In this document: positions 9,506 to 63,356 of the stretch, one piece after another
Numbering within the stretch: the first letter of the stretch is position 1
How the letters are laid out: every line of letters begins with the position of its first letter
DNA from: Candidatus Woesebacteria bacterium
GTDB taxonomy: Bacteria > Patescibacteriota > Microgenomatia > UBA8517
Direction: 5' to 3'
DNA: 64,000 nucleotides
NCBI GenBank assembly: GCA_016432525.1
Contig: CP066693.1
Span: forward strand, 614,175 to 678,174
Position numbers and translations under genes: made by a program
Notes under the pieces: generated by a model
What the model was told of the DNA's origin: nothing
Seen by the model: only the letters and a program-made list of their open reading frames with translations
Databases searched by the model: none

Positions 9506-9507
9506 GC

Positions 9508-10786: not shown

Positions 10787-10863
10787 GTCTTCCTCCCAAA
10801 GTCTATCCAGAGACCTTCTTATTCTATATTTTACAACTTTTTAAGAAATTGACAATCTTTCTA

Positions 10864-10899
10864 AATAAAAAACCGAAGTCTTTTTAAAAAACTTCGGTT
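10864..10899 (-). terminator. Rho-independent terminator for the 10922-11221 gene
   Basis: The stem aaccgaagt...acttcggtt is followed on the minus strand by TTTTTTATTT. The stem sequence is nearly identical to the terminator at 10366-10420. Confidence 0.65.
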
Positions 10900-10921
10900 A
10901 TGTTCTTATTATTTTCTTAAA

Positions 10922-11221: not shown

Positions 11222-11272
11222 TTTAGCCTCCTAGCTTCTATCTAGCAAACTTTATACCCTATATTGTGCTCC

Positions 11273-23925: not shown

Positions 23926-23996
23926 TGCACCTGTAGCTCAAAGGCAGAGCATTCCGCTAGATCGGAAGGTTTAGAGGTTCGAATCCTCTCGGGTGC
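23926..23996 (+). tRNA. tRNA-like gene with a canonical acceptor, D-arm and T-arm but an apparent 6-nt anticodon loop (CUAGAU), so the anticodon is unassigned
   Basis: Acceptor stem is gcacctg/cgggtgc with one U-G pair, D-arm is gctc-aaaggca-gagc, anticodon stem ttccg/cggaa is perfect with loop ctagat, variable loop is ggttt, and T-arm is agagg-TTCGAAT-cctct. A candidate -35 TTGACC lies at 23893-23898. Confidence 0.5.
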
Positions 23997-24000
23997 TATG

Positions 24001-45545: not shown

Positions 45546-46205
45546 GTGGTAAGTAAAAAACTATTATTTGCAATTGTCATAATTTTAATCGTAGGAGTAT
45601 TTGGATTTGTTATTATTTCCAAAAACAAGCCAACCAAAACAACAGTAATAAATTTAGAAACTAACCAAACATCAATGCCACAAAATTCAAAAACATGGGA
45701 CAAATCTCCCGCAATGTCCATAGATACTAATAAAAAATACGCTGCGTTAATTAAAACAACAGAAGGTAATATTGTAATTGATTTAGATATAAAAGAAACT
45801 CCAATTACAGTCAATAATTTTGTTTTCCTAGCTAAAAATAATTTCTACGACAACACAATTTTCCACAGAGTAGTTAAAAATTTCATGATTCAAGGAGGAG
45901 ACCCGGCAGGTGATGGAACTGGAGGTCCCGGCTACACTTTCGATGATGAACCAATCACAAAAGATTACAAAAGAGGAACTATTGCAATGGCTAATAGGGG
46001 TCCAAACACCAATGGTAGCCAGTTTTTTATAATGCACCAGGATTATCCTCTTCCAAAAAATTACGTTATTTTTGGATCAGTATCAAACGGCCTCGAAGTT
46101 TTAGATAAAATTGCAAAGGCCGATGTCGTAACAGCTCAATCAGGCGAGCTCTCCAAACCAGTTAACCCAGTCAAAATTCTTACAATCGAAATAAATGAGT
46201 ACTAA
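45546..46205 (+). CDS. Membrane-anchored cyclophilin-type peptidyl-prolyl cis-trans isomerase
   Basis: The cyclophilin core reads HRVVKNFMIQGGDPAGDGTGGPGYTFDDE. An N-terminal TM helix is present. The start is a GTG, with upstream TTGAAG, 18-nt spacer, TACAAT. Confidence 0.85.
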   Translation: MVSKKLLFAIVIILIVGVFGFVIISKNKPTKTTVINLETNQTSMPQNSKTWDKSPAMSIDTNKKYAALIKTTEGNIVIDLDIKETPITVNNFVFLAKNNFYDNTIFHRVVKNFMIQGGDPAGDGTGGPGYTFDDEPITKDYKRGTIAMANRGPNTNGSQFFIMHQDYPLPKNYVIFGSVSNGLEVLDKIAKADVVTAQSGELSKPVNPVKILTIEINEY

Positions 46206-46689
46206 CTTATTTTTGCTTCGCCACGCTGAGACATTTGCAACCATAAATTCAGAGCCAGGAAAAGAGAAGTATCACGACAAAGTCTTAACTGCAGACATTT
46301 TAAAATCCACAGTTACTCCAATAATAGAAATTTCAAAATATTTAAAAAAAATAGATACAGAAAAGAATTTAACCTCTCCAGTAAAAAGATGCCGTCAAAC
46401 TGTAGAAATTATTACCAAGCATTCAGCTAAAAAGTTTGAAATAGACGAAGATCTAAGAGAATACTATATGGAAAATTTTGAGAGCTTAAAAAATCGTGTG
46501 GAAAATTTAGTTAAAAAAACAAATAAATACAAAAATGTTCTAATTTGCACCCATGGTGCAGTGATAGCAGGCATAAAACACTTAATTTTAGAAAATGATT
46601 TCAAGTTCGAAGATATTCATGATTACCCTAAACCAGGAGTATTAATAATTATTAAAGACAAAAAAATAGAAGAAAAAGATTTTAACTAA
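46195..46689 (+). CDS. Histidine phosphatase (phosphoglycerate-mutase-like) family protein
   Basis: N-terminus reads LFLLRHAETF (RHG-type motif), with the catalytic His context CTHGAVIAG further along. Confidence 0.7.
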   Translation: MSTNLFLLRHAETFATINSEPGKEKYHDKVLTADILKSTVTPIIEISKYLKKIDTEKNLTSPVKRCRQTVEIITKHSAKKFEIDEDLREYYMENFESLKNRVENLVKKTNKYKNVLICTHGAVIAGIKHLILENDFKFEDIHDYPKPGVLIIIKDKKIEEKDFN

Positions 46690-46700
46690 AATCTGGTATA

Positions 46701-47078
46701 ATGAATAATAGTATGCCAAAGACTATTTTGCTTGTAGAAGATGATGTAGCTCTCGCTAAAATGTATTCAACCAAGTTTGCACTCGAGGGCTTTAATGTAA
46801 AAATTGCCAGATCTGGTGATGAGGGCCTAAACATGGCCTTAACCGAAAAGCCTGATCTTATCTTGCTTGACATGATGCTTCCAAAGGTAAGCGGAGATGT
46901 CATCCTTCAAAAAATCAAAAATGATTCCAGTGCAAAAAATATACCAGTTATTGTGTTAAGTAACTTAACAGTAACCAAAGAAGCTCAGGAAGCAGTTAGG
47001 CTCGGAGCAAAAGAATATTTAGCCAAAGCAATGCATACTCCAGAACAGATAGTTGAAAAAGTTAAAAAATACATATAG
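46701..47078 (+). CDS. Single-domain response regulator (CheY-like receiver only)
   Basis: Receiver motifs are present: ILLVEDD, the phospho-acceptor Asp in LILLDMMLP, then VIVLSN and the Lys of EYLAK. No output domain is present. Confidence 0.8.
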   Translation: MNNSMPKTILLVEDDVALAKMYSTKFALEGFNVKIARSGDEGLNMALTEKPDLILLDMMLPKVSGDVILQKIKNDSSAKNIPVIVLSNLTVTKEAQEAVRLGAKEYLAKAMHTPEQIVEKVKKYI

Positions 47079-47114: not shown

Positions 47115-47143
47115 TTGCAAACAACAAGCTCATTTGATATAAT
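47115..47143 (+). promoter_or_regulatory. Strong promoter TTGCAA, 17-nt spacer, TGaTATAAT driving the 47194-63324 glycan operon
   Basis: The -35 sits at 47115-47120 and the extended -10 at 47135-47143. The leader is about 50 nt with no clear Shine-Dalgarno. Confidence 0.55.
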
Positions 47144-47193: not shown

Positions 47194-50100
47194 ATGAATA
47201 AAATAGACATAATAATTCCTGTCAAAAATGAAGAAAAGAATGTACTACCTCTAGCCCAAAGGATTCATGCTGCTTTAAAGAAACTAAAAATAGATTACTC
47301 AATGATTTTTGTCGATGATCGATCAACCGACAAAACAGTACAGACAATAGAAAGCCTTTATGATGAATACCCTGTAAGGCTTCACAAAAAACAAGGGTCA
47401 GGAGGCAAGGCTTATAGCATAGTCGAAGCAGTTCAAATATCAAATGCTCCTTTTATCGCAATGATAGATGGTGACCTTCAATATCCACCCGAAAGTATTC
47501 CAGAAATGCTTAAAAAACTAGAGACTGAAGGAGTAGGTGTTGTGGTCGCCAATAGAAAAAAAGAGAAAATAGGTCGTCTCCGGCGAATTGTTTCCAAAGC
47601 CAACGCCCTCCTACTTGGAAAGCTACTATTAAACTTCAATTGCGATGCCCAATCAGGTTTGAAACTCTTCAAAAGGGAAATTTTTGAACACTTAGATCTT
47701 AAAGACATAAAACCCTGGTCTTTTGATATGCCTCTTTTGTATACAGCTCAAGAACTGGGACTAAAAATTGAAACAGTTGAAATAGATTTTAGTGAAAGGC
47801 AAAATGGAAAATCCAAAGTTTCGCTTTTTAAAACTACAACTCAGATCGCAACAACCGCATTAAAACTAAAACTCAAAAGAAAGAAAATCTATCACATCAA
47901 GCCTCAGAAACCAAATTCAATGCTCGGAGCCGGAGTTTCCTTCAAAAGAAAGCGCTTTATTACACACACAACTCTTCACCATGACAAATCTGCTTTAGTA
48001 ACTTTCAAAAGATGGCAAAAAATTTTCATTTTATTAATTCTTTCAATTTTAGCTTTTGGTCTGGTTAAATCTCCTCTTTTAACCGCCAAAATTTTTATTG
48101 GAGTTCTATCTTTTGTTTATTTTGTGGATGTTCTTTTCAACTTTTTCTTAATTTTGAAAAGCCTTCATTTTCCACCAGAGCTGTCTTTCTCTGATGAAGA
48201 ACTTGCACAAATCAAAGATCAGTCTTTGCCAATTTACTCAATTCTTTGCCCCCTTTACAGAGAAGCCCACGTTTTACCTAATTTCCTGCAGTCAATAAAT
48301 AATCTTGATTATCCAAAAGAAAAGCTAGATGTCCTTCTTTTGCTCGAAGAGGACGATGGAGAAACAATTGATGCAGCCAAGAAAATGAAATTGCCTGATT
48401 ATGTAAGAATTTTGATTGTTCCTCACTCATATCCCAAAACCAAACCAAAGGCCTGTAATTACGGGTTATCTCACGCAATAGGCGAGTATGTAGTAATTTA
48501 CGATGCGGAAGATGCTCCAGAATCCTCACAACTTAAAAAGGCCTATCTTGGATTTCAAAAAGTAAAAAGTAGCGTTTTTTGTCTTCAAGCAAAACTTAAT
48601 TACTATAACCCAAACCACAATCTTTTAACTAGACTTTTTACTGCAGAATATTCTCTTTGGTTTGATGTAATTTTGCCAGGTCTTCAATCAATTGAAGCAA
48701 CTATTCCTCTTGGTGGAACTAGCAACCACTTTAGAACCGCTGATTTATTAAAGTTAGAAGGTTGGGATCCTTTTAATGTCACAGAAGATTGTGATTTAGG
48801 AGTTCGTCTTTTTAAAGCAGGCTACAAAACTGCAATTATTGATTCAACAACACTAGAAGAGGCCAACAGTAATCTCAAAAATTGGATTCGTCAGAGATCT
48901 CGTTGGATTAAAGGCTACATTCAATCCTATTTAGTTCATATGCGAAATCCACTTGAGTTTATAAAAAATCATGGAATTCAAGCTTTGATTTTCCAACTAA
49001 TAGTTGGTGGAAAAATCGCTTTCATGTTAATTAATCCAATTCTTTGGCTTGCAACTTTCTCCTATTTTGCTCTTTACAAATTTGTAGGCCCAACAATTGA
49101 AGCTCTTTATCCTCCAGTAATTTTCTATATGGCAGCAACATCGCTAGTAGTTGGAAACTTCATGTTTCTTTATTACTACATGATTGGTTGCGCCAAAAAA
49201 GAGCACTGGACTGTCATTAAATTTGTATTTTTAGTTCCAATTTATTGGCTCATGGTAAGCTACGCCGCCTTAGTTGCTCTAATTCAATTAATTACAAAAC
49301 CTCACTATTGGGAAAAAACCAATCACGGTCTTCACCTTAAAAAACAAGAAATAAAAGAAAAAGAACAACTAATTGTAGATATAAATAACCAAATTCCAGT
49401 TAAATCAGAAAAATTAAGCAAATCTTTAATCGGGGGAATCGCACTAATTGTAGCTTCAATGATTGCAAATGTATTAAATCTTCTTTTTAATATCTATCTT
49501 GGAAAATCAATAGGTTTGGAAAGTTTCGGCCTTATAAGCCTTTTTGGAGGAATAATCGCTCTTATTCAAATCCCTCTTTCCTCATACAGCCGCACAATTA
49601 CCCATAAAACAGCATATCTGTTAGGAAAGTATAGTACGCCAGTCAAAACATATTGGAAAGAATTGAGAAACGCCTCATACCTTCCTTCTTTTCTTTTCGC
49701 CCTTGCCTGGATTGCAATCACTCCTTTTCTAGCTCGCTACTTTCAATCTAGCCCTCTTCCATTCTTTCTTTTGACCCCTCTCTGGCTTATCGGAATTCCA
49801 TCCTCTATTGATTCAGGAATAACAAATGGAAATCTAAAATTTGTTTCAGTAGCCATAACAACAATAGTTGAAGTTGTTGCCAAGTTTGCATCAACCATCT
49901 TCTTAGTGACTTTCGGATTTAAAGATTTTGTTTATCTTTCATTTTCATTTTCAGCTGTAATTTCATTCTTGGTCGGTTGGATTCTTGTCTTGTTTATCAA
50001 TAGAAAGGGAATTGAGATTAAAAAAGAAAATCTTCCTGTCTTCCCAAAAAAGTTTTACATAAGCACATTCTTTACAAAAATCTCTACAATTGCCTTTCTC

Positions 50101-51801
50101 TCAGTAGATGTAATTATCGCCAAACATTTTTTAAATCCCAGGGAAGCAGGTGAATACGCCCTTCTGTCATTAGCTGGAAAACTAGTCTTCTACTTAGGAA
50201 CTCTCTTTACTCAATTTGTTAATCCTCTAGTTTCAAAAAATGAAGGATTAGGCAAAAGCTCAAGAAAAACATTTGGATTTATTTTAGGTCTAACCACAGC
50301 CTCTGTTTCTTTCGGATTTCTACTGTTCGGAGTATTCGGAAAGTTTACAGTTCCTTTAATCTTTGGAGTAGCCAAAACTCAAAGCATAATTACATTCTTG
50401 CCTTTATATAACTATGCAATGGCATGTATTTGTATAGCCTCAGCAATAGTTTCATATCATCAATCAAAAGACAAACACGCATTTGCTTACCTAAGTCTTT
50501 TCTTCTCAATCCTTTTAGTTCTAGGCCTTTTCGTTTGGCACTCCGCCATAAGAGATTTCAGTTTTGTCTTAAGTGTTGTTGGAATCACATATCTTTGTGC
50601 AGTTTTTCTATTACATGAATTTTCTTCTAAAGTAAAAGTACAAAAAAGTACAAAAAAACTACTAAAAATTCTCATTCTTAATTGGAGAGACACTAAACAT
50701 AAATGGGCAGGTGGAGCAGAGGTCTATGTTCACGAGCTAGCCCAAAATTGGGTAAAAGAAGGTCATTTAGTAACTCTCTTTTGTGGAAATGACCAAAAAT
50801 GCCCAAGAAATGAAGTTGTAGACGGAGTCCAGGTAGTTCGTCGAGGCGGTTTTTACACAGTTTACATTTGGGCATTTATTTATTATCTTTTTGCTTTTAG
50901 AAGAAAATACGATGTAATTGTCGAAAGTGTTAACGGAGTTCCATTCTTTACGCCTTTCTATTCAAGAATCAAAAAAATCATAATAAGCTACCATGTCCAT
51001 CAGAACGTTTTTAGAAGTCATTTAAGATTTCCTCTCTCAACTCTGGCTAGCGTCATGGAAAAAAATTTAATGCCACTTGTTTACAGAAACACTCAATTTG
51101 TAACTATTTCTGCATCATCCAAAAACGATCTTTTAAATGCAAATCTTACTAAAAATGAAAATATAAGTATCGTAAATCCAGGAATCACATCAAAGCTTTA
51201 CAAAAAGGTTCCAAAAACAAAATATCCATCATTTTCATATGTTGGCCGCCTTCAGCATTACAAAAATATTGATATAGCACTAAAAGCATTCGCAAAGGTA
51301 GTCAAAATTCACAAAGATGCAGAGTTTGCAATTGTCGGAGAAGGCGAACAAGGTCAGTATCTCAAAAACATAACACACAATCTAGGTCTTTCGGAAAATG
51401 TTTTCTTTTTAGGTAAAGTCTCAGAAGAAGAAAAAGCCCGTGTATTTGGGCGTACTTGGGCCAGCATTCAACCTTCATCGTTCGAAGGATGGGGAATTAC
51501 AGTCATCGAGGCAAATGCAGCAGGAACTCCTGTTATAGCATCAAAGGTAAATGGTCTTAAAGATTCTGTGGTTGACGGAATTACTGGCCTATTAGTTCCA
51601 GAAAAGGATATCAAAGCTCTTGCTTATGCCATGAATTCAATAATTGAAGATAAATCTCTTAGAAATTATTTAAGCAAAGAGGCTCTAAAGTGGTCAAAAC
51701 AGTTTAGTTGGGAAAAAACATCAAAACAGTTTCTCAAAATCATTAACGAAAACTACTCTGACGATACCACAAAAATAGAAGGAGATTTTCAATATGTATA
51801 A
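47194..51801 (+). CDS. Giant (1535 aa) multi-module protein: DPM1-like GT2, then processive GT2 (D, DxD, TED, QRSRW), then Wzx/MOP-flippase-like 10-12 TM block, then GT4
   Basis: aa 1-230 read IIIPVKNEEKN...VDDRSTDKT...IDGDLQYPPE. aa ~330-600 read LCPLYREAH...IYDAEDAPE...TEDCDLGVR...QRSRWIKGY. aa ~740-1150 are polytopic. aa ~1160-1535 read ILNWRDTKHKWAGGAEVYVHELA...EGWGITVIEANAAGTPVIASKVNGL...GLLV. Confidence 0.8.
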   Translation: MNKIDIIIPVKNEEKNVLPLAQRIHAALKKLKIDYSMIFVDDRSTDKTVQTIESLYDEYPVRLHKKQGSGGKAYSIVEAVQISNAPFIAMIDGDLQYPPESIPEMLKKLETEGVGVVVANRKKEKIGRLRRIVSKANALLLGKLLLNFNCDAQSGLKLFKREIFEHLDLKDIKPWSFDMPLLYTAQELGLKIETVEIDFSERQNGKSKVSLFKTTTQIATTALKLKLKRKKIYHIKPQKPNSMLGAGVSFKRKRFITHTTLHHDKSALVTFKRWQKIFILLILSILAFGLVKSPLLTAKIFIGVLSFVYFVDVLFNFFLILKSLHFPPELSFSDEELAQIKDQSLPIYSILCPLYREAHVLPNFLQSINNLDYPKEKLDVLLLLEEDDGETIDAAKKMKLPDYVRILIVPHSYPKTKPKACNYGLSHAIGEYVVIYDAEDAPESSQLKKAYLGFQKVKSSVFCLQAKLNYYNPNHNLLTRLFTAEYSLWFDVILPGLQSIEATIPLGGTSNHFRTADLLKLEGWDPFNVTEDCDLGVRLFKAGYKTAIIDSTTLEEANSNLKNWIRQRSRWIKGYIQSYLVHMRNPLEFIKNHGIQALIFQLIVGGKIAFMLINPILWLATFSYFALYKFVGPTIEALYPPVIFYMAATSLVVGNFMFLYYYMIGCAKKEHWTVIKFVFLVPIYWLMVSYAALVALIQLITKPHYWEKTNHGLHLKKQEIKEKEQLIVDINNQIPVKSEKLSKSLIGGIALIVASMIANVLNLLFNIYLGKSIGLESFGLISLFGGIIALIQIPLSSYSRTITHKTAYLLGKYSTPVKTYWKELRNASYLPSFLFALAWIAITPFLARYFQSSPLPFFLLTPLWLIGIPSSIDSGITNGNLKFVSVAITTIVEVVAKFASTIFLVTFGFKDFVYLSFSFSAVISFLVGWILVLFINRKGIEIKKENLPVFPKKFYISTFFTKISTIAFLSVDVIIAKHFLNPREAGEYALLSLAGKLVFYLGTLFTQFVNPLVSKNEGLGKSSRKTFGFILGLTTASVSFGFLLFGVFGKFTVPLIFGVAKTQSIITFLPLYNYAMACICIASAIVSYHQSKDKHAFAYLSLFFSILLVLGLFVWHSAIRDFSFVLSVVGITYLCAVFLLHEFSSKVKVQKSTKKLLKILILNWRDTKHKWAGGAEVYVHELAQNWVKEGHLVTLFCGNDQKCPRNEVVDGVQVVRRGGFYTVYIWAFIYYLFAFRRKYDVIVESVNGVPFFTPFYSRIKKIIISYHVHQNVFRSHLRFPLSTLASVMEKNLMPLVYRNTQFVTISASSKNDLLNANLTKNENISIVNPGITSKLYKKVPKTKYPSFSYVGRLQHYKNIDIALKAFAKVVKIHKDAEFAIVGEGEQGQYLKNITHNLGLSENVFFLGKVSEEEKARVFGRTWASIQPSSFEGWGITVIEANAAGTPVIASKVNGLKDSVVDGITGLLVPEKDIKALAYAMNSIIEDKSLRNYLSKEALKWSKQFSWEKTSKQFLKIINENYSDDTTKIEGDFQYV

Positions 51802-52630
51802 GTTTCCACAAAAAATAAAAGGTTTTGATTTCCAAAAAGAGCTAATTGATAAAAAATCAAAACACAATTTCTATTTTGCTATCTACAAAAATGGAAATAA
51901 ACAAGCCATTGCGAAAATGTTTGTAGGAAATAAAAGTGATAAATCATACAAATCCTTACTTCATGAAGCATTTGTCACAAAGATATTAGAAAGTCTCACT
52001 CCCAAAGTTTATTGTGTGATTCAAAAAGATGAATTCTTCTTAATTTTATTTGAATTTATTAATGGTAATAAGCTCAATAAGTTTTCAGATTCTCAAAAAA
52101 TAAAAAATTACTTAAACTCAGTCAACAATCTTAGAAACACTGGTTCAAAATTAAACAAAGAAAACAAAAGGCTAATTGGCCAAAGAAGCTCTTTATTCCA
52201 CATAATTTCATATCCATATTTTGTAATAATGGCAATCTTTTCTTATCCAAAATATTTCTTAAATATCGTTTCCTTTATTCCAATCTTTTTAGGTTCAATC
52301 ATTGATCTATTAAAACAAAACAGCCTCGTTTTAACTCACGGAGATTTACATGACGACAACATTTTAATTACCAAAAGAAAAACTTATTTATTAGATTTTG
52401 GCTTTTCCAAATTCCAACACCCCTCTTATGAATTTATAGTTACACTATCTTGCTTATGGGATGACAAACCTTTTATAAATGGAATACTAAATCATCTCAA
52501 AAACCAAAAGGTTGGTTTAAACAAAGCTCTCTCGATAAAAATAGTTACACAGTTTTTGTCTGACAAAAATCTAAGCGATAAAAAGGTTGATAATTATATT
52601 AGTTTTCTAAATTTTATTAAAAAGATATGA
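51794..52630 (+). CDS. Protein-kinase-fold phosphotransferase (WaaP/Kdo-kinase/APH-like)
   Basis: The beta3 Lys lies in QAIAKMF, the catalytic loop reads LTHGDLHDDNILI, and the DFG motif reads YLLDFGFSK. Confidence 0.6.
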   Translation: MYKFPQKIKGFDFQKELIDKKSKHNFYFAIYKNGNKQAIAKMFVGNKSDKSYKSLLHEAFVTKILESLTPKVYCVIQKDEFFLILFEFINGNKLNKFSDSQKIKNYLNSVNNLRNTGSKLNKENKRLIGQRSSLFHIISYPYFVIMAIFSYPKYFLNIVSFIPIFLGSIIDLLKQNSLVLTHGDLHDDNILITKRKTYLLDFGFSKFQHPSYEFIVTLSCLWDDKPFINGILNHLKNQKVGLNKALSIKIVTQFLSDKNLSDKKVDNYISFLNFIKKI

Positions 52631-53571
52631 AAGCATTAACCATTATTCCAGCATATATTCTAGGCAATACCAAAAAAGTAATTCTTCCCAAAAAAGTAGG
52701 TTCTTATGTTTTAATTAAAGACCTGCAACAGAAAAAAATTCATCCATACGCTGTTGGACTTTATAAAAAAGATGGAAATAAATTTGTTATTAAGATTTGG
52801 TCTGGTAATTTAAAGGATGAATTTTATTATTGCCTTAAAAATGAAATAGCTGCACTCGCAATTTTAAACAAAACTCGAAAATTTAAAATCAAGAGCTTAC
52901 CTACTCATTTAAGACAAGTCTCAACACCAGGCTTTATAGAATCAATAGATAAAAATAATCAATTAATATTAATAGCTGAATACATAGAGGGAAAAAAGGT
53001 TTCGGAGTTGAAATCAACAGAAAAACAACTTCTATATTTGAATATCTGCCAAGAATATATAAAGTGGATTGGAGACAATATTCCCCCAAAAGAAAGAAAA
53101 TTAATTAGAGACAAATCCAAACTTAAATTCTTATATTATTATCCTTTAATTTTTGCTGCAGCTTTTATAAAACGTCCAGATTTAAGATCAATTCTTTTAA
53201 AAAGCGTACATACATTTATTTCAGGAGTTCCTATGTTTCTTAAATTTGAAAGTAGATTAGTTCATGGCGATTTACATGTACAAAACATAATTACAAAAGG
53301 TAAAAAAATCTACATTTTAGATACTGAAATCATGATGTATACATTTCCTGTTTATGAACAAATAGTTTCATTTGCAAGCTTCAGAAATAGCTATTCCTTG
53401 CAGAAAAAAATATTAGATAGTTTAATTAGAAAAGCAAAAAAAAATAAAGAATTCAAGATACTGTTGAAGAGTCTCTTAATCCATAACTCAACATACGATT
53501 TAACTGGAAATGTGCCTAATAAAGTTGTTGAAAAAAGTAGAGAAAATATAAAATTAGCAATATCACTATGA
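52627..53571 (+). CDS. Protein-kinase-fold phosphotransferase (paralogous, WaaP/APH-like)
   Basis: The beta3 Lys lies in KFVIKIWSG, the catalytic loop reads LVHGDLHVQNIIT, and the metal-binding Asp lies in YILDTEI. Confidence 0.55.
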   Translation: MKALTIIPAYILGNTKKVILPKKVGSYVLIKDLQQKKIHPYAVGLYKKDGNKFVIKIWSGNLKDEFYYCLKNEIAALAILNKTRKFKIKSLPTHLRQVSTPGFIESIDKNNQLILIAEYIEGKKVSELKSTEKQLLYLNICQEYIKWIGDNIPPKERKLIRDKSKLKFLYYYPLIFAAAFIKRPDLRSILLKSVHTFISGVPMFLKFESRLVHGDLHVQNIITKGKKIYILDTEIMMYTFPVYEQIVSFASFRNSYSLQKKILDSLIRKAKKNKEFKILLKSLLIHNSTYDLTGNVPNKVVEKSRENIKLAISL

Positions 53572-54260
53572 AAAAACAAATTTACAAAATAAGATCATCA
53601 ATAACCAAAAAAATAAAATCTAAATCACGCTATTTTTTGGCTACAAAAAGTCTTAAACCTTTAAGTAGAAAGTTCGGCTTTGACAGGGGAACTCCTATCG
53701 ATAGATTCTGGATTGAATCATTTTTAAAAGAAAACAGAAGGCAAATTAAAGGAAAATGTTTAGAGATTACAGACAACTTCTACATCAAAAAATTTGGTCT
53801 TTCTAAAGTCAAAACAAGAGATGTTTTGGATATTGATATTAAAAACAAAAAAGCAAATATTCACGGAGATTTAAGAAATCTCAAAAACAAAATTAAAGAC
53901 AACTCTTATGATTGTGTAATCTTAACCCATGTTTTGGGCGCAATAGATGAATATGAAAAAGCGCTTTTAGAAATAAAAAGAATTCTAAAGCCCGGTGGAG
54001 TTTTACTTTTGACATCCTCTTGCTTTAGTCCGATATACATCCAAGGTCCTAAAAATTACTGGAGATTCACACCGGATGGAGCAAAACATGTTTTTGGAAA
54101 TATTTTTGGTGAGAGAAAAGTCAAAGTTAAATCTTATGGAAATGTACTTACTGGCCAATGTTTTTGGGTAGGTATGTCTCAAGAAGAATTAAGCAAATAT
54201 GAACTTGAATATAACGACCCCGAATTTCCATGTATAGTGGGAGTTTTAGCAAGAAAATAA
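53568..54260 (+). CDS. Class I SAM-dependent methyltransferase
   Basis: CLEITDNF...DCVILTHVLGAI...LKPGGVLLLT resembles the Methyltransf_11/23 family. Confidence 0.7.
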   Translation: MKKQIYKIRSSITKKIKSKSRYFLATKSLKPLSRKFGFDRGTPIDRFWIESFLKENRRQIKGKCLEITDNFYIKKFGLSKVKTRDVLDIDIKNKKANIHGDLRNLKNKIKDNSYDCVILTHVLGAIDEYEKALLEIKRILKPGGVLLLTSSCFSPIYIQGPKNYWRFTPDGAKHVFGNIFGERKVKVKSYGNVLTGQCFWVGMSQEELSKYELEYNDPEFPCIVGVLARK

Positions 54261-54261
54261 T

Positions 54262-55167
54262 ATGAAGAAATTAAAACAATTAACAGTCGGAATTCCTGCT
54301 TTAAACGAAGAAAAAAGTATAGGAGTTTTACTAAGCTCCTTGATTTCTCAAAAAGAGAAAGGTTTTAGGATAGTAAAAATAATAGTAATTTCCGACGGAA
54401 GTACTGATTCAACAGTATCAACTGCTAAAAGAATTAAAGACAGAAGAATAGAAGTAATTCAAAAAAAGAAACGTCTAGGAAAAGCCAGTCGATTAAATCA
54501 AATAATCAATAAAACCGATTCCGATCTTCTTGTTTTAGTAGATGCTGACATTTCAATCGCAAGTCAGGATTTCATTTCAGAATTGGTGACTCCAATAATA
54601 AACCAAAAAGCTGATATGACTTCACCTGCAATACAAGAATTGTCATCTAAAACATTTTTCGAAGAAGTTTTAGATCTTTCAATGAAATTGAAGATAATTC
54701 TATTCTCAAAATTCAAAAACGGAAATAACGTATACAACTGTCACGGCCCAGCAAGAGCTTTCAATAAAAGCTTATATAAAAAAATAAACTTCCAAAATAG
54801 CGAAGGGGACGACATGTTCTCTTATCTTTTTTGCATCAAAAACAATTATAAATTCAGATTTATTCCTAATATTTACGTCTCATACAGACTTCCATCCGTC
54901 ATAAAAGATCATTACAAACAAAGCTCACGTTATTTAAACGCAATTGAATTTTGTAATAGCTTCTTTGGCAAAAATTTAGTAAATTCAGAGTTTGCAATTC
55001 CCAGAAGTGTATTCTTATGTTCATTTCTCTCATCAATTCCGCTTTTATTTAGAATGCCAATTCATTCTATTTTTTATCTTTCAACTTTTTCTCTTGTTAG
55101 AATTGCACGTAAATTGAACATCAAACCTAATGAATATTGGCAAGTTAAATCATCAAAAAATATATGA
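54262..55167 (+). CDS. Family 2 glycosyltransferase (paralog group A)
   Basis: VGIPALNEEKSIGVLL...IVISDGSTDSTV...LVDADI, with a C-terminal tail reading NEYWQVKSSKNI. Confidence 0.75.
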   Translation: MKKLKQLTVGIPALNEEKSIGVLLSSLISQKEKGFRIVKIIVISDGSTDSTVSTAKRIKDRRIEVIQKKKRLGKASRLNQIINKTDSDLLVLVDADISIASQDFISELVTPIINQKADMTSPAIQELSSKTFFEEVLDLSMKLKIILFSKFKNGNNVYNCHGPARAFNKSLYKKINFQNSEGDDMFSYLFCIKNNYKFRFIPNIYVSYRLPSVIKDHYKQSSRYLNAIEFCNSFFGKNLVNSEFAIPRSVFLCSFLSSIPLLFRMPIHSIFYLSTFSLVRIARKLNIKPNEYWQVKSSKNI

Positions 55168-55961
55168 AGAAAAGAAACTACATAAGGAAAGCGATATATC
55201 TGACACTTTTAAGAGTTGATCATCTCTTAAAGCGTTCTAACAAAATAGTCATTTTCTGCTATCACAGTATTGCAAAGGATAATTGGGCCTTTAGCGTAAA
55301 ACCAAAAAATTTAGAAAAACAAATGGATTACATGCTTGATAATTACGAATCTTGGAGTTTATCTGATCTAGAAAAATATCTAAAAGGAAGAAAAAAACTT
55401 ACAAAGAATGTGTTTATTGTAACCTTTGATGATGGTTATAGAAACCTACTCAAATCCATTGATCTTTTCAAAAGTAAGTCAATCTATCCAACAGTTTTCC
55501 TTCTTTCTGACAAAGAAAAAATAAAAAGAAAAGAGATTTCATCTAAAAAATTAATTTTAAAAGAAAGTGACATATTAATCTTGAAGTCAGCCGGTTGGGA
55601 AATAGGAAGTCACTCAAAAACCCATCCCAACTTTTGGAAATTAGACGAAAATAAGCTAGAAGAAGAAATTAAAGGTTCTAAGCTAAATTTAGAAAAAAAT
55701 CTCAACTTAAAAGTAAATTATTTTGCTTATCCAAAAGGAAAATACACAAAAAATGCTCTAAATATAGTCAAAAAATCAGGTTATAAATTGGCGCTTACGG
55801 TAGATGACAATTTCATATGTAGATCCTCAAATAAATTCTTACTTCCAAGAATAGGTATTGATGGAACCCATACTTTCGAAGAATTTAAAGCAAGTTTTAC
55901 ACCATCAGTAGTTACATTCAGAAATATCGTAAAACACACATTTTTTTACAAATTTATATGA
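55164..55961 (+). CDS. Polysaccharide deacetylase (NodB homology domain)
   Basis: The core reads VTFDDGYRNLL...GSHSKTHP. Confidence 0.75.
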   Translation: MKKRNYIRKAIYLTLLRVDHLLKRSNKIVIFCYHSIAKDNWAFSVKPKNLEKQMDYMLDNYESWSLSDLEKYLKGRKKLTKNVFIVTFDDGYRNLLKSIDLFKSKSIYPTVFLLSDKEKIKRKEISSKKLILKESDILILKSAGWEIGSHSKTHPNFWKLDENKLEEEIKGSKLNLEKNLNLKVNYFAYPKGKYTKNALNIVKKSGYKLALTVDDNFICRSSNKFLLPRIGIDGTHTFEEFKASFTPSVVTFRNIVKHTFFYKFI

Positions 55962-57121
55962 AAAACAAAAAAATCGATTTAATAGTTAAATATTTTTATC
56001 CAGTTGCAGCCGGTATTGAAACAAATACCTTAGAAACTTATTCCATTCTTGCAAAAGAAGGTTTTAATGTAATAATTCACACATCTATAAATTCTCTTGT
56101 TGAAAAAAATATTTACAAAAATTACGAAGAATATAGAGGGCTCAAAATAAAACGTTTTGAATTTAATAAATATCTTTTAAATCCCAAAATAGATTACAAA
56201 AACTCAGATATCATTGCCCTACACAATTTTGATGTTCTACCTCATCTAACAATCATGTTAAAGTCACTATTTTTTAAAATCCTTGGCAAAAAAAATTATA
56301 AATTAATCCTAACTCCTCATGGAGGCTTTAATCCAGAATGGAGCATCTTTAAGCCTCAAATAGCTCTGGCTAAAAGCATTTATCACTTTACACTTGGAAC
56401 TTTCCTTATAAATCTTACTGTTGATTCAGTTCGCGCAGTATCGGAATGGGAAAGGCAGGAAATTATTAAAAAAGGTGTTAATCCCTCAAAAGTAGTGGTA
56501 ATTTCAAATGGATTAGAAGATGAAGCTTTCAAGGATGTTGAAAATCTTGCCTCAAACGATATAAAACAAAAAGTTAAAAGTTTTGGAAAATATATTATCC
56601 AAATCGGCCGCGTCTACCCAATCAAAAATTATGAAACTACAATTAAAGCTTTAGCTAAGTGTCCAAAAGACCTCAAATATATAATCGCAGGTCCAATTGC
56701 AAATGAAAATTATAAAACAAAATTAGATAACTTAATTAAAAAATTGAATCTTAAAAATAGAGTAATCTTCGTAGGAGTAATAAGAGGAATTGACAAATAT
56801 TATCTAATAAAACACGCACAAATCATGGTTCATATGGCTATTTGGGAAAGCTTTTGTAATGTTGTCCATGAAGGTTTATCTCAAGGCCTTCCAATAATTG
56901 TAGCCAACAATACCGCCCTTCCATACATTATTAAAAATAATGTTAACGGCTACTGCGTTGAAACCAAAAATTATCAAAAATTAGCCTCAAAAATCGATTT
57001 TATTTTGAAAAATATGAATGGAAAAGAAATTAAAGATATGAAAAAAAGAAATAAAAACGTAGGGACAGATGAATCCTGGACCTCAACAGCATTAAAAATG
57101 AAGGAGCTTTATGAAAAATAA
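55958..57121 (+). CDS. Family 4 glycosyltransferase (GT-B)
   Basis: The Glycos_transf_1 C-domain reads ...VHMAIWESFCNVVHEGLSQGLPIIVANNTALPYII...GYCV. Confidence 0.8.
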   Translation: MKNKKIDLIVKYFYPVAAGIETNTLETYSILAKEGFNVIIHTSINSLVEKNIYKNYEEYRGLKIKRFEFNKYLLNPKIDYKNSDIIALHNFDVLPHLTIMLKSLFFKILGKKNYKLILTPHGGFNPEWSIFKPQIALAKSIYHFTLGTFLINLTVDSVRAVSEWERQEIIKKGVNPSKVVVISNGLEDEAFKDVENLASNDIKQKVKSFGKYIIQIGRVYPIKNYETTIKALAKCPKDLKYIIAGPIANENYKTKLDNLIKKLNLKNRVIFVGVIRGIDKYYLIKHAQIMVHMAIWESFCNVVHEGLSQGLPIIVANNTALPYIIKNNVNGYCVETKNYQKLASKIDFILKNMNGKEIKDMKKRNKNVGTDESWTSTALKMKELYEK

Positions 57122-58034
57122 AAAAACAACAGTTTCAATCGGAATCCCAGCTTATAACGAAGAAGCAAATATTCAAAATGCTATTCGTTCTGTCTTAAAT
57201 CAAAAAAGTGATAATTTCGTTTTAGAAAAAATAATAGTAATTTCTGACGGAAGTAGCGACAATACAGTTGAAAAAGCATCATCATTTAAAGATAAAAAAA
57301 TTCAAATTATTTCAGGAAGAACAAGAATAGGAAAAGCAGAAAGGCTTAATCAAATTTTTAATATTACAAACTCAGAAATATTAATACTTTTAGATGCAGA
57401 TTGTATTCTAGAAAAAGATGCAATTTTTGAAATGATAAAGATTTTTAATAAAGACTCACGGATCACTTTAGTTGGATCAAATGCAACCCCGTTTGAAATC
57501 TCTGGATTCATAACAAAAATTGTTAACATTGGAGTAACAATAAATAAACGAGTAGGTTCTCAATACCACAAAGGCAACAATGTTTATTCTTACAGAGGAT
57601 CACTCATTGGTCTAACAAAAAAAATTTACAGATCAACAAAAGTACCAAAAGATATACTAGCAGACGATGCATATCTGTATATGTACACTATCAGTAAAAA
57701 TTTGAAAAAAGCTTGGTCCAAAAAAATTATCGTCTACTACAGAATACCTTCAACTATTTCAGAACATATTAAGCAAAGTTTGAGGTTTGTTAAATCCCAA
57801 AAAGCAATAAATAAATATTTCGGTGACTGGACAATAAAAGAATTTATCTTGCCCAGAAAAATATTAATTAAAGAGATTATATCATTAATCTTCGAACAAC
57901 CAATATTTGCAATTTTATTTTTAGTTACCAACTCGTACGTTTCATTTTTAAATTTAGTAGACGTTAAAAAAATGAATTACAAATGGGAAATGATTTCTTC
58001 TACCAAAAAAATTTTATATATAAATGAACAATAA
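57111..58034 (+). CDS. Family 2 glycosyltransferase (paralog group A)
   Basis: IGIPAYNEEANIQNAI...IVISDGSSDNTV...LLDADC, with a C-terminal tail reading NYKWEMISSTKKI. Confidence 0.75.
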   Translation: MKNKKTTVSIGIPAYNEEANIQNAIRSVLNQKSDNFVLEKIIVISDGSSDNTVEKASSFKDKKIQIISGRTRIGKAERLNQIFNITNSEILILLDADCILEKDAIFEMIKIFNKDSRITLVGSNATPFEISGFITKIVNIGVTINKRVGSQYHKGNNVYSYRGSLIGLTKKIYRSTKVPKDILADDAYLYMYTISKNLKKAWSKKIIVYYRIPSTISEHIKQSLRFVKSQKAINKYFGDWTIKEFILPRKILIKEIISLIFEQPIFAILFLVTNSYVSFLNLVDVKKMNYKWEMISSTKKILYINEQ

Positions 58035-58953
58035 AAACCAAAAAACATCAGTTTCAATTGGAATTCCAACATATAAATCGCCAGACACAATACCTCAAGT
58101 TTTGAAATCTTTATTTAAACAAAAAACCAAAAATGTCAAGATTTTAGAAATTATTATTTATTCAGACGGAAACAATGACGATACCGTCAAAAACTGCAAA
58201 AAAGTAGCTAGAAATAACAAAAAAATAAAGATTATCGACGCTAAAGTAAGACATGGAATGGCTTATGGCTTTAAGTATATGGCATCCCTTTTTAAGGGTG
58301 ACATCTTTGTTTTGTTTTGTGACGATATCAAAATCGCTGACAATTATCTCATTGAAAAATTAACAAAACCTTTGATTTCTGATAAAAAAGTTGGATTAGT
58401 AGGTGGTAACACAATTCCATTATCCCCAAAGAATTTTTTTCAAAAAGCTTACTTTTCAAGTTTCAACGCTTATCATAGAACAGCTTATAAACTAAAAGAT
58501 GGTGATAACAAACATACGTGCGATGGGGCAATATTAGCCTTTTCAAAAAACTTAATTAAAAAAGTAAAATTTCCAAAAGAAGACAAAAGACTTGGCAATG
58601 TCGATGCTTATATGTATTTCGCAACATTAACAAATGGTTTTAAATATCGTTTTGCTAAAAACGCCAGAGTTTATTTTGAGTTAGCATCTTCTCATTCAGA
58701 AATCTTATCAAGATTCTCAAGGAATAATTCAAACAAGTATTTATTAATAAGTCAATTTGGTGATATTGTTAAAAAAGAATACAAATTACCTAATGCTGAA
58801 CACAGTAAATCTCTAGTTATTGAATTTCTCAAAAACCCTTTAGGTTCAATCTATATCTATTCAATGGGAAGATATTCAGAATATAAAGGCAAACAAATAG
58901 CAAAAAATTTCAATCCAACCTGGCAAGTTATTGAGTCAACCAAAAACATATGA
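58024..58953 (+). CDS. Family 2 glycosyltransferase (paralog group A, more divergent)
   Basis: IGIPTYKSPDTIPQVL...IIYSDGNNDDTV, with a C-terminal tail reading NPTWQVIESTKNI. Confidence 0.7.
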   Translation: MNNKNQKTSVSIGIPTYKSPDTIPQVLKSLFKQKTKNVKILEIIIYSDGNNDDTVKNCKKVARNNKKIKIIDAKVRHGMAYGFKYMASLFKGDIFVLFCDDIKIADNYLIEKLTKPLISDKKVGLVGGNTIPLSPKNFFQKAYFSSFNAYHRTAYKLKDGDNKHTCDGAILAFSKNLIKKVKFPKEDKRLGNVDAYMYFATLTNGFKYRFAKNARVYFELASSHSEILSRFSRNNSNKYLLISQFGDIVKKEYKLPNAEHSKSLVIEFLKNPLGSIYIYSMGRYSEYKGKQIAKNFNPTWQVIESTKNI

Positions 58954-60497
58954 AACTATCAAAAATAATATTCACAATTTTAATATTTATTTTCTCTTCT
59001 TTATTAATGCTTTTTGCCATCAAAGGAAGAGTAGACAAGTTAGACAATTTTTATTACCAACAACAAAAAGATACTAGCGTCGGTAGTCCATTTGAATCCT
59101 CAAATTCAAATGCCCGTTATGCTTTAACTGAGGCAATCGTTAAGGACAAATCCTTTCTTTTATCTCCGGATTTAGCCAAATTCGCTTCCCCTGATGTTGT
59201 CCAATACAAAGGCAAATTTATATCAATATTCACCCCTGGAATATCTTTAATAGGTGTTCCTTTTTATTTACTAGGAGAAAAAATCGGCATTCCACAAATT
59301 ACAACTTATTTATCAGTCACAATTTTTGGTATTCTAAATATTTTTCTAGTTGCTCATCTTGCTCGAAAACTTGGTGCAGGTTTTTATGAAAGCTTAATTG
59401 GAGGACTGCTGTTTTTGTTTGCCTCAAATTCACTTTCATATTCTCTTTCTTTCACTCAGCACGAGCTTTCATCTACAGTTCTTTTGCTTGCTCTTACAAA
59501 TGCAATAGGAGAAAGAAACTTAGTCAAAAACATTATTTTTGGAGTTCTTGTCGGAATCGGAATTTTGGCAGATATTCCAAATGTAATCTTAATGGCTCCA
59601 ATTGGAATTTACATTTTCTTTAAGCACCTAAGGTTAAAAAAGACTCAAACAAAAGTCAAAAAAACACTTACAATTTTAAGCCTTCTTGGAATAGTTTTGG
59701 GTCTAATCCCTTTTGCAGGAATTTTTGCTTACTATAATTTCAAAACAACTGGTTCCTACGCAAAAATCGCTCAAAACATAGGTCGATCAAATGCTTTTAG
59801 CGTTGATAGTATTCAAAACTCAGACGATTATCTTAAAAAAGCAGAAGACGTTGGAGGAAAAAGCTCATCCTCTCTTCCTTTCAATTCCAGAAAAGAGCTC
59901 AGCGGTTTCTACACGCTCTTAATAAGCGATGAGCGCTCTTGGCTTTACTATAGTCCAATAATTTTAGTCGGAATTTTAGGTATTTGGATAGGTTTTAAAA
60001 GCAAAAAAGTTAAAGACATTCTAGTCATTGCCGTTGCAATCATAGGAACAAATATCCTTTTGTATTCCATGTTTGGTGATCCTTGGGGAGGTTGGGCGTT
60101 TGGACCAAGATATTTAATTCCAGCTGCTGCAATTCTTAGTGCAATGATCCCTATAGCTATTACCAAATATAAGAAAAAAATTATCTTTATAATACCAATG
60201 ACCCTTCTTGTAGGGTATAGCGTTTATATAAACTCTCTTGGAGCAATAACCACAAATGCAATTCCACCAAAAGTCGAAGCACAGTCATTATCTACTGGAA
60301 TTCCATACACCTATAAATACAACGAGAATCTTGCAAGCCAAAACCAATCAAGCTCGCTTGTCTATAACGCATTCATTACAAACAATCTAAGTCTTGATAT
60401 TTACATAAAAGAGTTTTCTTTATTCTCATTTGCTCTAATTGCATTCTCTTTCATATTTGCCTTTTTTGACAAAGAAAGGAAAAACAAAAATGTTTAA
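58950..60497 (+). CDS. Polytopic membrane protein, GT-C-like glycosyltransferase candidate
   Basis: About 12 TM helices. The first extracytoplasmic loop reads ...NARYALTEAIVKDKSF...PGISLIGVPFY. The assignment is tentative. Confidence 0.4.
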   Translation: MKLSKIIFTILIFIFSSLLMLFAIKGRVDKLDNFYYQQQKDTSVGSPFESSNSNARYALTEAIVKDKSFLLSPDLAKFASPDVVQYKGKFISIFTPGISLIGVPFYLLGEKIGIPQITTYLSVTIFGILNIFLVAHLARKLGAGFYESLIGGLLFLFASNSLSYSLSFTQHELSSTVLLLALTNAIGERNLVKNIIFGVLVGIGILADIPNVILMAPIGIYIFFKHLRLKKTQTKVKKTLTILSLLGIVLGLIPFAGIFAYYNFKTTGSYAKIAQNIGRSNAFSVDSIQNSDDYLKKAEDVGGKSSSSLPFNSRKELSGFYTLLISDERSWLYYSPIILVGILGIWIGFKSKKVKDILVIAVAIIGTNILLYSMFGDPWGGWAFGPRYLIPAAAILSAMIPIAITKYKKKIIFIIPMTLLVGYSVYINSLGAITTNAIPPKVEAQSLSTGIPYTYKYNENLASQNQSSSLVYNAFITNNLSLDIYIKEFSLFSFALIAFSFIFAFFDKERKNKNV

Positions 60498-62049: not shown

Positions 62050-62064
62050 TGTATAATCCCCTAA

Positions 62065-63324
62065 ATGTATATCAAAGATATGAAATTAGCTAAAAAATTC
62101 TTAATAGCAGGCGTATTGATCTTTTTGATTGCGCTTTTAAATAAACCCGTAATTAGCCACAATGGTGAAAGCGAGCCAACTCTTTGGTTGATTCAATCAA
62201 TCGACACAATGAAATACTCTCGTGATCCTGCTCGAGAAAAAATAAAGGACCCCAACTTTAAAAAAGTAATCGATGATCAAGTCAAAAAAATAGCTTCCAC
62301 TGGTGCAAATTATGTGGCAATAGCAACTCCATATGATCAGGAATTCGTTCCATTTTTAAAGGAATGGGTGAGCTCTGCGAGAAAAAACAACCTTCATGTT
62401 TGGTTTCGCGGAAACCTCTCGGGTTGGGAAGGCTGGTTCAACTATCCCAAGATTTCAAAATCAGTTCATAACCAAAAAATAAAAGAGTTTATATTAGCAA
62501 ATGAAGATTTATTTCAGGATGGCGATATCTTCAGTTCATGCCCTGAATGTGAAAATGGGGGAACAGGCGACCCAAGGCAAACAGGGGATATCATCTCTTA
62601 CAGAAATTTTCTAATTAGCGAATACAGGGCCACACAGGACGCCTTCACCCAAATACATAAAAATGTTTATTCCAACTTTTTCTCGATGAATGCAGATGTT
62701 GCCAATTTAGTCATGGATCAACAGACAACAAAGGCTCTTGGTGGAATCGTCGTCATTGATCATTATGTTTCAACTCCTCAAAAACTAGTTACAGATATCG
62801 TAACTCTTAGCCAAAAAACAGGAGGAAAGATAGTTTTAGGAGAATGGGGAGCTCCTATTCCAGATATAAATGGACAAATGAATGAAAGGGAGCAGGCAAA
62901 TTGGATTCACGAAGTTTTAGATAAACTCTCAGAAACAAAAGAGCTTATTGGTTTGAATTATTGGGTCAATCTTGGAGGATCAACAAGTATATGGAATGAT
63001 GACGGAACTCAAAGGCAAGCAGTTCAAGAAATCACAAATTTCTACACTTCAAACTTAGCTAAAGGATCAATTGATGACGAGATTGATAAACCTATAGAAG
63101 CGGTAAAAGTAAATATCGGAATTCGGACGGTTTTAACTGATAAAAATGGCTATTTTGAAATTCCAAATGTAAATAAAAACATGAGAGTTGATATACAAAT
63201 GCCCAATTACGAGTCACAAACTTTAGATATAGCAAATCTTTCTCACAAAATCGTTCTAATAAGACAAAATAATGGAATCATCTTCAAAATCAAAAAATTT
63301 CTCCATTTACTTCACATCATATAA
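62065..63324 (+). CDS. Exported TIM-barrel glycoside-hydrolase-like protein with a C-terminal CarboxypepD_reg-like beta-sandwich
   Basis: Signal/anchor reads KKFLIAGVLIFLIALL. ...ANEDLF... and ...IVLGEWGAP... are reminiscent of GH-A clan acid/base and nucleophile regions. The C-terminus NGYFEIPNV is CarboxypepD_reg-like. Confidence 0.35.
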   Translation: MYIKDMKLAKKFLIAGVLIFLIALLNKPVISHNGESEPTLWLIQSIDTMKYSRDPAREKIKDPNFKKVIDDQVKKIASTGANYVAIATPYDQEFVPFLKEWVSSARKNNLHVWFRGNLSGWEGWFNYPKISKSVHNQKIKEFILANEDLFQDGDIFSSCPECENGGTGDPRQTGDIISYRNFLISEYRATQDAFTQIHKNVYSNFFSMNADVANLVMDQQTTKALGGIVVIDHYVSTPQKLVTDIVTLSQKTGGKIVLGEWGAPIPDINGQMNEREQANWIHEVLDKLSETKELIGLNYWVNLGGSTSIWNDDGTQRQAVQEITNFYTSNLAKGSIDDEIDKPIEAVKVNIGIRTVLTDKNGYFEIPNVNKNMRVDIQMPNYESQTLDIANLSHKIVLIRQNNGIIFKIKKFLHLLHII

Positions 63325-63327: not shown

Positions 63328-63356
63328 TTGACTACAGGATTTATCGATGATATAAT
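63328..63356 (+). promoter_or_regulatory. Promoter TTGACT, 17-nt spacer, TGaTATAAT for the 63373 gene
   Basis: The -35 sits at 63328-63333 and the -10 at 63351-63356. The ATG follows about 17 nt later. Confidence 0.55.

Follow-up and report, generated by a model that had tools for sequence, protein, structure and literature searches.

The tandem kinase-like genes K1 and K2 lie in a 64,000 nucleotide (nt) stretch of a Candidatus Woesebacteria genome (contig CP066693.1), here called the window. They belong to a kinase family that is a fixed part of one conserved surface-glycan assembly cluster, and they are a distinct, uncharacterised subfamily within the APH/CAK superfamily. We give somewhat better than an even chance to their being glycan O-kinases that work at the cytoplasmic face of the membrane. 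All coordinates are window positions and the operon genes are on the + strand. The two open reading frames (ORFs) are as follows.

51794..52630, + strand: K1, APH-fold kinase, 278 amino acids (aa), assigned by Pfam APH and homology to K2
52627..53571, + strand: K2, APH-fold kinase, 314 aa, assigned by ORF, motifs and structure model

An earlier note on this DNA had placed two kinase ORFs at 51794–53571, and the ORF list gives exactly these coordinates. The note had also described the two proteins as paralogs with roughly 25% identity that retain the beta3 Lys, the HGDLHxxN loop and the DFG or DTE metal-binding Asp. BLASTP aligns K1 and K2 with 25% identity across 249 residues (E-value = 1e-18), and all three motifs are located in both proteins. 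The K1 beta3 Lys is K41 (nt 51914–51916), found in the AIAK motif (nt 51905–51922); the catalytic loop is HGDLHDDN (H182–N189, nt 52337–52360), and the metal-binding Asp is D201 (nt 52394–52396) of LLDFG (nt 52388–52402). The corresponding K2 elements are K56 (nt 52792–52794) of FVIKIW (nt 52783–52800), HGDLHVQN (H213–N220, nt 53263–53286) and D232 (nt 53320–53322) of ILDTE (nt 53314–53328). HMMER lines up HGD..N..DFG of K1 with HRD..N..DWG of casein kinase 2 (CK2), and HRDLhxxN..D of the family profile with Stk1 of S. aureus. As these are the loops of genuine kinases, the motifs are not misaligned, which removes a concern voiced in the earlier note.

Both proteins fit Pfam APH (PF01636) better than any other family, with 36.6 bits for K1 against a cut-off of 23.2. 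The Kdo profile PF06293 (WaaP/WaaY/KdkA) shows no match to K1 or K2, and the spore-kinase models (CotS/CotI/YsxE) are likewise unmatched, e.g. TIGR02904 (YsxE) gives 12.5 bits where the cut-off is 263. A phmmer search of PDB sequences gave a marginal match for K1 (CK2, E-value = 0.02) and no match for K2.

The AlphaFold2 model of K2, built from a shallow alignment, has a pLDDT (predicted local distance difference test) of 90.3 and a pTM (predicted template modelling score) of 0.87. From residue 22 onwards the whole chain is modelled as a compact kinase fold, in agreement with the protein-kinase fold that had been proposed. The model is bilobal, with the helical C-lobe and insertion by which APH/CAK members are recognised: a helical insertion of ~95 residues separates the hinge from the catalytic loop, and an all-helical tail follows the metal-binding Asp, both APH-type. 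The best structural match is APH(4)-Ia (PDB 3TYK; score 19.9, 258 residues aligned). It is followed by the spore kinase YtaA/CotI (17.1), corramycin kinase (17.0), APH(2'') (16.6), APH(9) (16.5), type II homoserine kinase (16.3), maltokinase (15.6), LicA (15.4), CcrZ and YihE (15.1), fructosamine-3-kinase (14.7), NahK (14.3), glucosamine kinase (14.2) and methylthioribose (MTR) kinase (14.0). This ranking places K2, as modelled, in the APH/choline-kinase branch of the protein-kinase-like fold and not with WaaP/Kdo-type or Src-like kinases. Membership in the WaaP/Kdo kinases was rejected; there is no profile match and the structural similarity is just distant. The spore kinases CotI/YtaA, CotS, YutH and YsxE (PDB 2Q83) are structurally close, but they belong to another phylum and to a sporulation context that is absent here.

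The top structural matches are hygromycin, spectinomycin, gentamicin, corramycin and amicoumacin kinases, and the NCBI annotation of both K1 and K2 is 'phosphotransferase'. Such a list could be read as antibiotic-resistance kinases that happen to lie in the operon by chance. However, identity to APH(4)-Ia and the other antibiotic phosphotransferases is just 9–17%, the NCBIfam APH(3') model gives 21 bits where 205 is the cut-off, and the resistance context is not shared. Unlike the antibiotic kinases, the window family shows a hydrophobic hairpin, an HRD/HGD consensus and a conserved W two residues after the Lys; it is always found within a glycan cluster and is often fused to membrane glycan enzymes. 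Translational coupling, synteny and domain fusions, given below, tie the family to glycan enzymes, and a chance resistance gene is scarcely credible.

When K1, K2 and a 5-sequence profile were used in word-indexed searches, no more than 5 proteins came up, and the family emerged only with an exhaustive HMMER search of 1.84 billion representatives. This search found 887 proteins with E <= 1e-3, of which 191 have E <= 1e-30; the 887 are representatives from clustering at 50% identity. A pattern scan (L[VT]HGDLH.. / HGDLH..NI), which is generic to APH enzymes, was uninformative; it picked up one remote locus from Actinomycetota (L002) and two short fragments of metagenomes (L003, L004). An alignment of 75 members shows no variation at K56 and D232, and conservation of at least 90% at H213, D215, L216 and N220. 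The HxDxxxxN motif is found in 141 of 152 retrieved members, including both halves of all tandem fusions. Conservation of these residues across members points to an active enzyme family rather than to pseudokinases, and the K1/K2 family is predicted to consist of catalytically competent kinases. Eleven of the 152 do not show the strict motif (P0028, P0055, P0061, P0063, P0069, P0114, P0126, P0128, P0131, P0144 and P0146) and may be variant or inactive (pseudokinase) forms. Among them are the GT-C, GT2 and deacetylase fusions P0069, P0146 and P0144.

Fusions of two kinases are found in 8–9 representatives of 620–685 aa. In a comparison of scores, K1 favours the N-terminal halves and K2 the C-terminal halves of these di-kinases; e.g. 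in P0008, K1 scores 98 bits with the N half and 50 bits with the C half, and K2 scores 54 and 142 bits, respectively. The tandem does not represent a local duplication: K1 and K2 belong to two old subclades, which are also found fused in one polypeptide. The 'tandem' of the earlier note holds in the sense of adjacency. K1-like domains make up only 18 of 162. Locus L014, with an 80%-identical K2 orthologue, has a K1-like C-terminus upstream. L015 (47% K2 orthologue) and L001 (32%) show the giant glycosyltransferase (GT) described below, K2 and a methyltransferase, with no K1. K2 is present in every locus and appears to be the core enzyme, whereas K1, absent from L015 and L001 and rare among the domains, would be an accessory paralogue found in some loci and not in others.

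The ATG of K1 lies 8 nt inside the 3′ end of a 1535-aa glycosyltransferase gene, and overlaps of 4 nt (ATGA) are found at the K1/K2 and K2/methyltransferase junctions. Close packing of genes runs on to 60497, with overlaps of 4–11 nt at the junctions. With its tight overlaps this is one translationally coupled operon, the other features of which are listed here.

47115..47143, + strand: candidate operon promoter, TTGCAA, 17-nt spacer, TGnTATAAT (extended −10), consensus match only
47194..51801, + strand: giant 1535-aa four-module protein (Pfam)
53568..54260, + strand: class I S-adenosylmethionine (SAM) methyltransferase, 230 aa (Pfam Methyltransf_11, E-value = 1.7e-10)
54262..55167, + strand: GT2 glycosyltransferase, 301 aa (Pfam Glycos_transf_2, E-value = 1.2e-23)
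55164..55961, + strand: CE4 polysaccharide deacetylase, 265 aa (Pfam Polysacc_deac_1, E-value = 1.6e-21)
55958..57121, + strand: GT4 (Pfam), overlapping its neighbours, orthologues in L001 and L005
57111..58034, + strand: GT2 (Pfam), overlapping its neighbours, orthologues in L001 and L005
58024..58953, + strand: GT2 (Pfam), overlapping its neighbours, orthologues in L001 and L005
58950..62049, + strand: two GT-C-like (PMT_2/ArnT-like) polytopic membrane proteins, 515 aa and 536 aa (weak Pfam PMT_2, E-value = 4e-4, below cut-off)
62065..63324, + strand: 419-aa protein with an N-terminal hydrophobic segment and a CarboxypepD_reg-like beta-sandwich (Pfam below cut-off)

The giant protein begins with a polyprenyl-phosphate-GT-like GT2 module (residues 1–230), for which the nearest NCBIfam models are ArnC, PgfS, AglJ and dolichyl-phosphate GTs. 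A second, synthase-like GT2 with transmembrane (TM) helices follows (residues ~348–700) and is nearest to the CelA and PgaC synthases; both modules fall below the equivalog cut-offs. The C-terminal part consists of a Wzx-like flippase domain (residues ~740–1165), where Polysacc_synt (PF01943) gives 30.1 bits against a cut-off of 28.2 over residues 740–1165, and a GT4 module (residues ~1173–1500).

The link to the glycan machinery is best supported by fusions. Long family members were searched with the operon proteins of the window and with Pfam, and the kinase was found joined to several of these partners. In 6 representatives the kinase is fused to the Wzx-like membrane domain of the giant protein (residues ~745–1160, best E-value = 3e-84). 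Other fusion partners are a homologue of the first GT-C protein, encoded at 58950–60497 (P0069, E-value = 1e-126), a homologue of the 54262–55167 GT2 (P0071 and P0146, best E-value = 4e-43), the CE4 deacetylase (P0136, P0138 and P0144, E-value ~1e-43) and the methyltransferase (P0151 of locus L006, E-value = 1e-68). P0118 is a fusion with a PIG-L deacetylase, by Pfam match.

Gene order shows the same association. Together with the window, 13 loci were compared; several of the twelve related ones lie on short contigs. The giant GT or its Wzx-GT4 half is directly 5′ of the kinase in 9 of 9 loci with an identifiable upstream gene. A giant-protein orthologue occupies this position in L001, L007–L010, L013 and L015, and the protein is split into two genes in L005 and L006. 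It is a single chain in L007 (1856–6583, 1575 aa) and L008 (4331–9004, 1557 aa). In L015, a groundwater metagenome contig, the orthologue has an in-frame TAA in the GT4 domain (198–200), which could be a sequencing error or mark a pseudogene. The methyltransferase is present in 8 of the 13 loci (window, L001, L005, L006, L007, L008, L014 and L015), all of which carry the stronger family matches (P0003–P0026 and the P0151 fusion). Of the 8 loci that extend far enough downstream, 7 have a deacetylase 3′ of the kinase, and it adjoins or lies near the kinase in L001, L005 and L007–L010. The deacetylase is as constant a kinase partner as the methyltransferase. The overlapping genes, the partner fusions and the gene order in 12 other loci bear out the assignment of K1 and K2 to a glycan operon in the earlier note, as does the Methyltransf_11 protein for the methyltransferase said to follow them.

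Some loci carry additional modifying enzymes. L007 has a hexapeptide-repeat acetyltransferase (7507–8088) and a second flippase domain fused to a kinase (9001–11259); L005 has a second methyltransferase (13629–14381) and a polysaccharide pyruvyl transferase (17314–18660). Extra modifiers of this kind suggest that the cluster acts as a scaffold on which the decoration of the glycan can vary.

The methyltransferase has an atypical motif I, with CLEITDN in place of the usual GxGxG SAM motif, and has no close solved structure. Its orthologues are 53–61% identical and have in common a strongly conserved N-terminal segment, FGFDRGTPIDRFWIE (SxKFGFDRGTPIDRFWIE). The orthologue directly follows the kinase in L001, L005, L008, L014 and L015, is fused to it in L006, and comes after the deacetylase in L007. 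The deacetylase is nearest to the PgaB/IcaB models of NCBIfam, below their cut-offs. It shows no TM segment, signal-like segment or hydrophobic leader, and the kinase-deacetylase fusions (P0136 sequence) have no TM segment between the domains. The deacetylase is thus probably cytoplasmic, like NodB or ArnD.

The proposed role follows this arrangement. K1 and K2 would be O-phosphotransferases that use cytoplasmic ATP at the inner membrane face. Three points would place them there: the cytoplasmic location of ATP, the fusion of relatives to a flippase C-terminus, and a hydrophobic helical hairpin on the substrate side. In APH enzymes the equivalent hairpin forms the acceptor pocket. The hairpin is found at residues 131–175 of K1 (nt 52184–52318) and 163–207 of K2 (nt 53113–53247), and its mean hydropathy is +0.73 for the family (+1.05 for residues 131–175 of K1) vs −0.14 for whole proteins. 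The kinases would be docked beside the flippase and GT machinery, possibly through this hairpin, and would transfer phosphate to a hydroxyl group of a sugar or oligosaccharide on a polyprenyl carrier, ahead of flipping or export. K1 would add a second phosphate or serve a second acceptor position. The deacetylase would probably prepare or modify the same (N-acetylhexosamine) residue. In the K2 clade, the adjoining or fused methyltransferase may methylate the phosphate to give methyl-phosphate, or alternatively may methylate the same residue elsewhere.

The hydrophobic hairpin and the fusions to flippase and GT-C membrane proteins would also fit lipid-carrier kinases acting on polyprenol or some other membrane alcohol. 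The giant protein starts with a GT2 that resembles polyprenyl-phosphate GTs, and polyprenyl phosphate made in this way could supply this ArnC/DPM1-like module, which would be useful in cells of the Candidate Phyla Radiation (CPR) that scavenge lipids. However, two divergent tandem paralogues with a methyltransferase and a sugar deacetylase as partners would not be expected of such a function, and the known polyprenol kinases (DgkA-type, dolichol kinase) belong to other families. We regard a lipid-carrier kinase as highly improbable.

The choline-kinase matches bear on a further alternative. K1 shows a weak match to Choline_kinase (PF01633; 16.8 bits, E-value = 0.0045), K2 shows none, and the family profile matches choline kinases with E-value = 3e-4. 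A LicA/NahK-type enzyme would phosphorylate free choline, ethanolamine, hexosamine or a sugar C1, and the product would then be nucleotide-activated and transferred onto the glycan; in one variant, the methyltransferase could turn phosphoethanolamine into phosphocholine. The core of the methyltransferase does weakly resemble phosphoethanolamine and phosphatidylethanolamine (PE) N-methyltransferases (E-value 4e-4 to 0.04), and L008 has an NTP_transferase and an epimerase gene upstream. But the likeness of the methyltransferase is confined to the generic SAM-binding core, and the 16.8 bits of K1 are far under the cut-off of 29. LicA and NahK differ from the proposed role in that they act on free metabolites and need the LicC nucleotidyltransferase or a downstream transferase. 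As the earlier note had it, no LicC-type nucleotidyltransferase is in the window: no nucleotidyltransferase domain was found among the tested ORFs of >=120 aa, with four small or doubtful ORFs outside the scan. Neither a nucleotidyltransferase nor a LicD-type transferase was found in the window scans or in the other syntenic loci. The fusions to flippase, GT-C, GT2 and deacetylase are also hard to square with a soluble free substrate. The LicA pathway was thus rejected for K1 and K2 (Choline_kinase below threshold, no LicC or LicD in the window), and the LicA-type head-group route suggested in the note fails for its defining partners. A LicA/NahK-type function is quite unlikely.

For glycan O-kinases, several known systems can be compared. 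WaaP/WaaY and KdkA are protein-kinase-like and phosphorylate sugars of membrane glycolipids at the cytoplasmic face, which is the job proposed here for K1 and K2. On the E. coli O9a O antigen, WbdD first adds a phosphate to the terminal mannose and then a methyl group to that phosphate (PMC3482155). The Klebsiella O7 ORF6 carries out the same chemistry with an unrelated pair, the kinase of which is most similar to the APH-fold AmiN (PMC11231755). Methyl-phosphate caps made by a kinase and a methyltransferase arose at least twice, once with an APH/AmiN-like kinase (PMC3482155; PMC11231755). As in WbdD (E. coli O9a/Klebsiella O3) and O7 ORF6, a kinase-fold domain and a class I methyltransferase are encoded together in a glycan-assembly locus, and are fused in P0151; the O7 kinase, too, is APH/AmiN-like. 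WbdD and O7 ORF6 are the best functional precedent for a kinase beside a methyltransferase. They make methyl-phosphate a reasonable guess for this cluster, and as the product here we consider it possible, though doubtful. Homology of the kinase or methyltransferase domains to WbdD was sought and not found, and WbdD is kept as a functional analogy.

A number of results weigh against glycan O-kinases with a methyl-phosphate product. A WbdD-type terminator depends on a coiled-coil ruler and on an ABC transporter that carries a carbohydrate-binding module. No such ruler is present in K1 or K2, where the kinase domain takes up the whole protein (judged without a coiled-coil predictor). No Wzm/Wzt transporter is found in the window, where the sole ABC_tran match is UvrA and a Wzx-like Polysacc_synt domain appears instead. 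A search with the window methyltransferase found no WbdD chain up to E-value = 10. The methyltransferase is not seen in 5 of the 13 loci, all with lower-ranking family members, and in two of these (L009 and L010) three or more downstream genes are visible. Methyl-phosphate, then, cannot be what the family makes in general. The 'CPR-type' label of the relatives rests on low G+C (GC) content and groundwater or metagenome origin. The acceptor is taken to be a sugar, and might instead be a lipid, a protein or a free metabolite.

Other points concern the kinases themselves. K2 gives 20.7 bits with Pfam APH, just under the gathering score, so that of the profile searches proposed in the earlier note APH is positive for K1 and just missed for K2, with Kdo and Choline_kinase negative; the K2 relatives P0005 (31.7 bits) and P0006 (60.9 bits) exceed the APH cut-off. 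The K1 model is poor (pLDDT 49.9, 5-sequence alignment) and was kept out of the fold search, so the K1 fold rests on its Pfam match and homology to K2. The best PDB sequence matches of the family profile are bacterial and eukaryotic Ser/Thr protein kinases (E-value = 3e-6), and the family consensus HRDLHxxN is that of true protein kinases. K1 and K2 might accordingly phosphorylate Ser/Thr/Tyr of the GT and flippase machinery, or of a surface (S-layer) protein, so that glycan synthesis would be controlled and not decorated. However, these matches cover only the catalytic loop (~45 residues), and the K2 model has the APH-type insertion and helical tail, with no APE motif or activation segment visible in its secondary structure. 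Protein kinases or regulators are very unlikely. For the phospho- or methyl-decoration of the glycan suggested in the earlier note, the link to the glycan holds through fusions and synteny, and the phosphorylated molecule is deduced.

Other parts of the window may be noted. The candidate promoter at 47115–47143 is near-consensus and lies 50 nt 5′ of the start codon of the giant GT. The extended −10 TGnTATAATCC recurs on the + strand at 47115–47143, 62052–62057 and 63328–63356; in front of the giant GT gene and of an ORF at 63373 it is paired with TTGCAA or TTGACT across 17 nt, which makes each a near-consensus promoter. The copy at 62052 is just 7 nt 5′ of the ATG at 62065, which suggests a leaderless transcript. 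The 419-aa protein that starts there is kept at the end of the cluster (L001 orthologue, E-value = 3e-129). The GT-C-like proteins before it each have 9–10 hydrophobic segments, and the L001 orthologue of the second likewise matches PMT_2.

GC content is 27–30% over the kinase-to-GT4 part (52000–58000) vs 33–36% in the flanks; such a drop is typical of variable or exchanged surface-polysaccharide genes. Directly upstream of the operon promoter (46195–47078, + strand) are a His_Phos_1 histidine-phosphatase-family protein and a stand-alone response-regulator receiver domain. A second glycan cluster, with no kinase, is found at 1707–8645 (+ strand). It contains a GT2, a Polysacc_synt_3 Wzx-like protein, a canonical Methyltransf_11/31 methyltransferase, a 718-aa GT2-PMT_2 (GT-C) fusion, another GT2 and a Wzy_C polymerase/ligase-like protein. 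A tRNA gene at 23927–23997 (+ strand; Rfam, 54 bits) receives no identity from ARAGORN ('anticodon (ag)'). Its anticodon stem, TTCCG/CGGAA, encloses a 6-nt loop, CTAGAT, where 7 nt is normal, which could mean a pseudogene, an indel introduced in assembly or a tRNA of unusual form.

No published description of the kinase family or of the CPR cluster was found in the literature. New here are the subfamily, the di-kinase and flippase-kinase architectures and the fixed place in a CPR glycan cluster. That a kinase-fold enzyme decorates a surface glycan is already known; the possible methyl-phosphate chemistry in a Wzx-type pathway is not. At its widest, the proposal would be that widespread, undescribed, membrane-docked APH-fold glycan kinases and a dedicated methyltransferase install phosphate or methyl-phosphate in a flippase-dependent CPR pathway. 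Capping by a kinase and a methyltransferase would then have originated independently a third time, and for the first time outside the ABC-transporter O-antigen systems of Gram-negative bacteria, with the cap perhaps a signal for flipping or length. Taken whole, this is unlikely.

To our knowledge, there is almost no experimental knowledge of CPR cell envelopes. The analysis defines a conserved glycan-assembly cluster of which an uncharacterised kinase family is an obligatory part, and the flippase, deacetylase, methyltransferase and kinase-kinase fusions form a testable map of enzymes that share one intermediate. Glycan kinases would be useful to research on the CPR envelope and on glycan capping, and are not surprising in principle. 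A lipid carrier or a protein as substrate would also be new for this branch of the APH/CAK fold. If the product is a phosphorylated or methyl-phosphorylated glycan, a capping chemistry known only from O antigens of enterobacteria would also occur with an envelope and an export route of a very different kind, and would give a chemical signature to seek on CPR cell surfaces.

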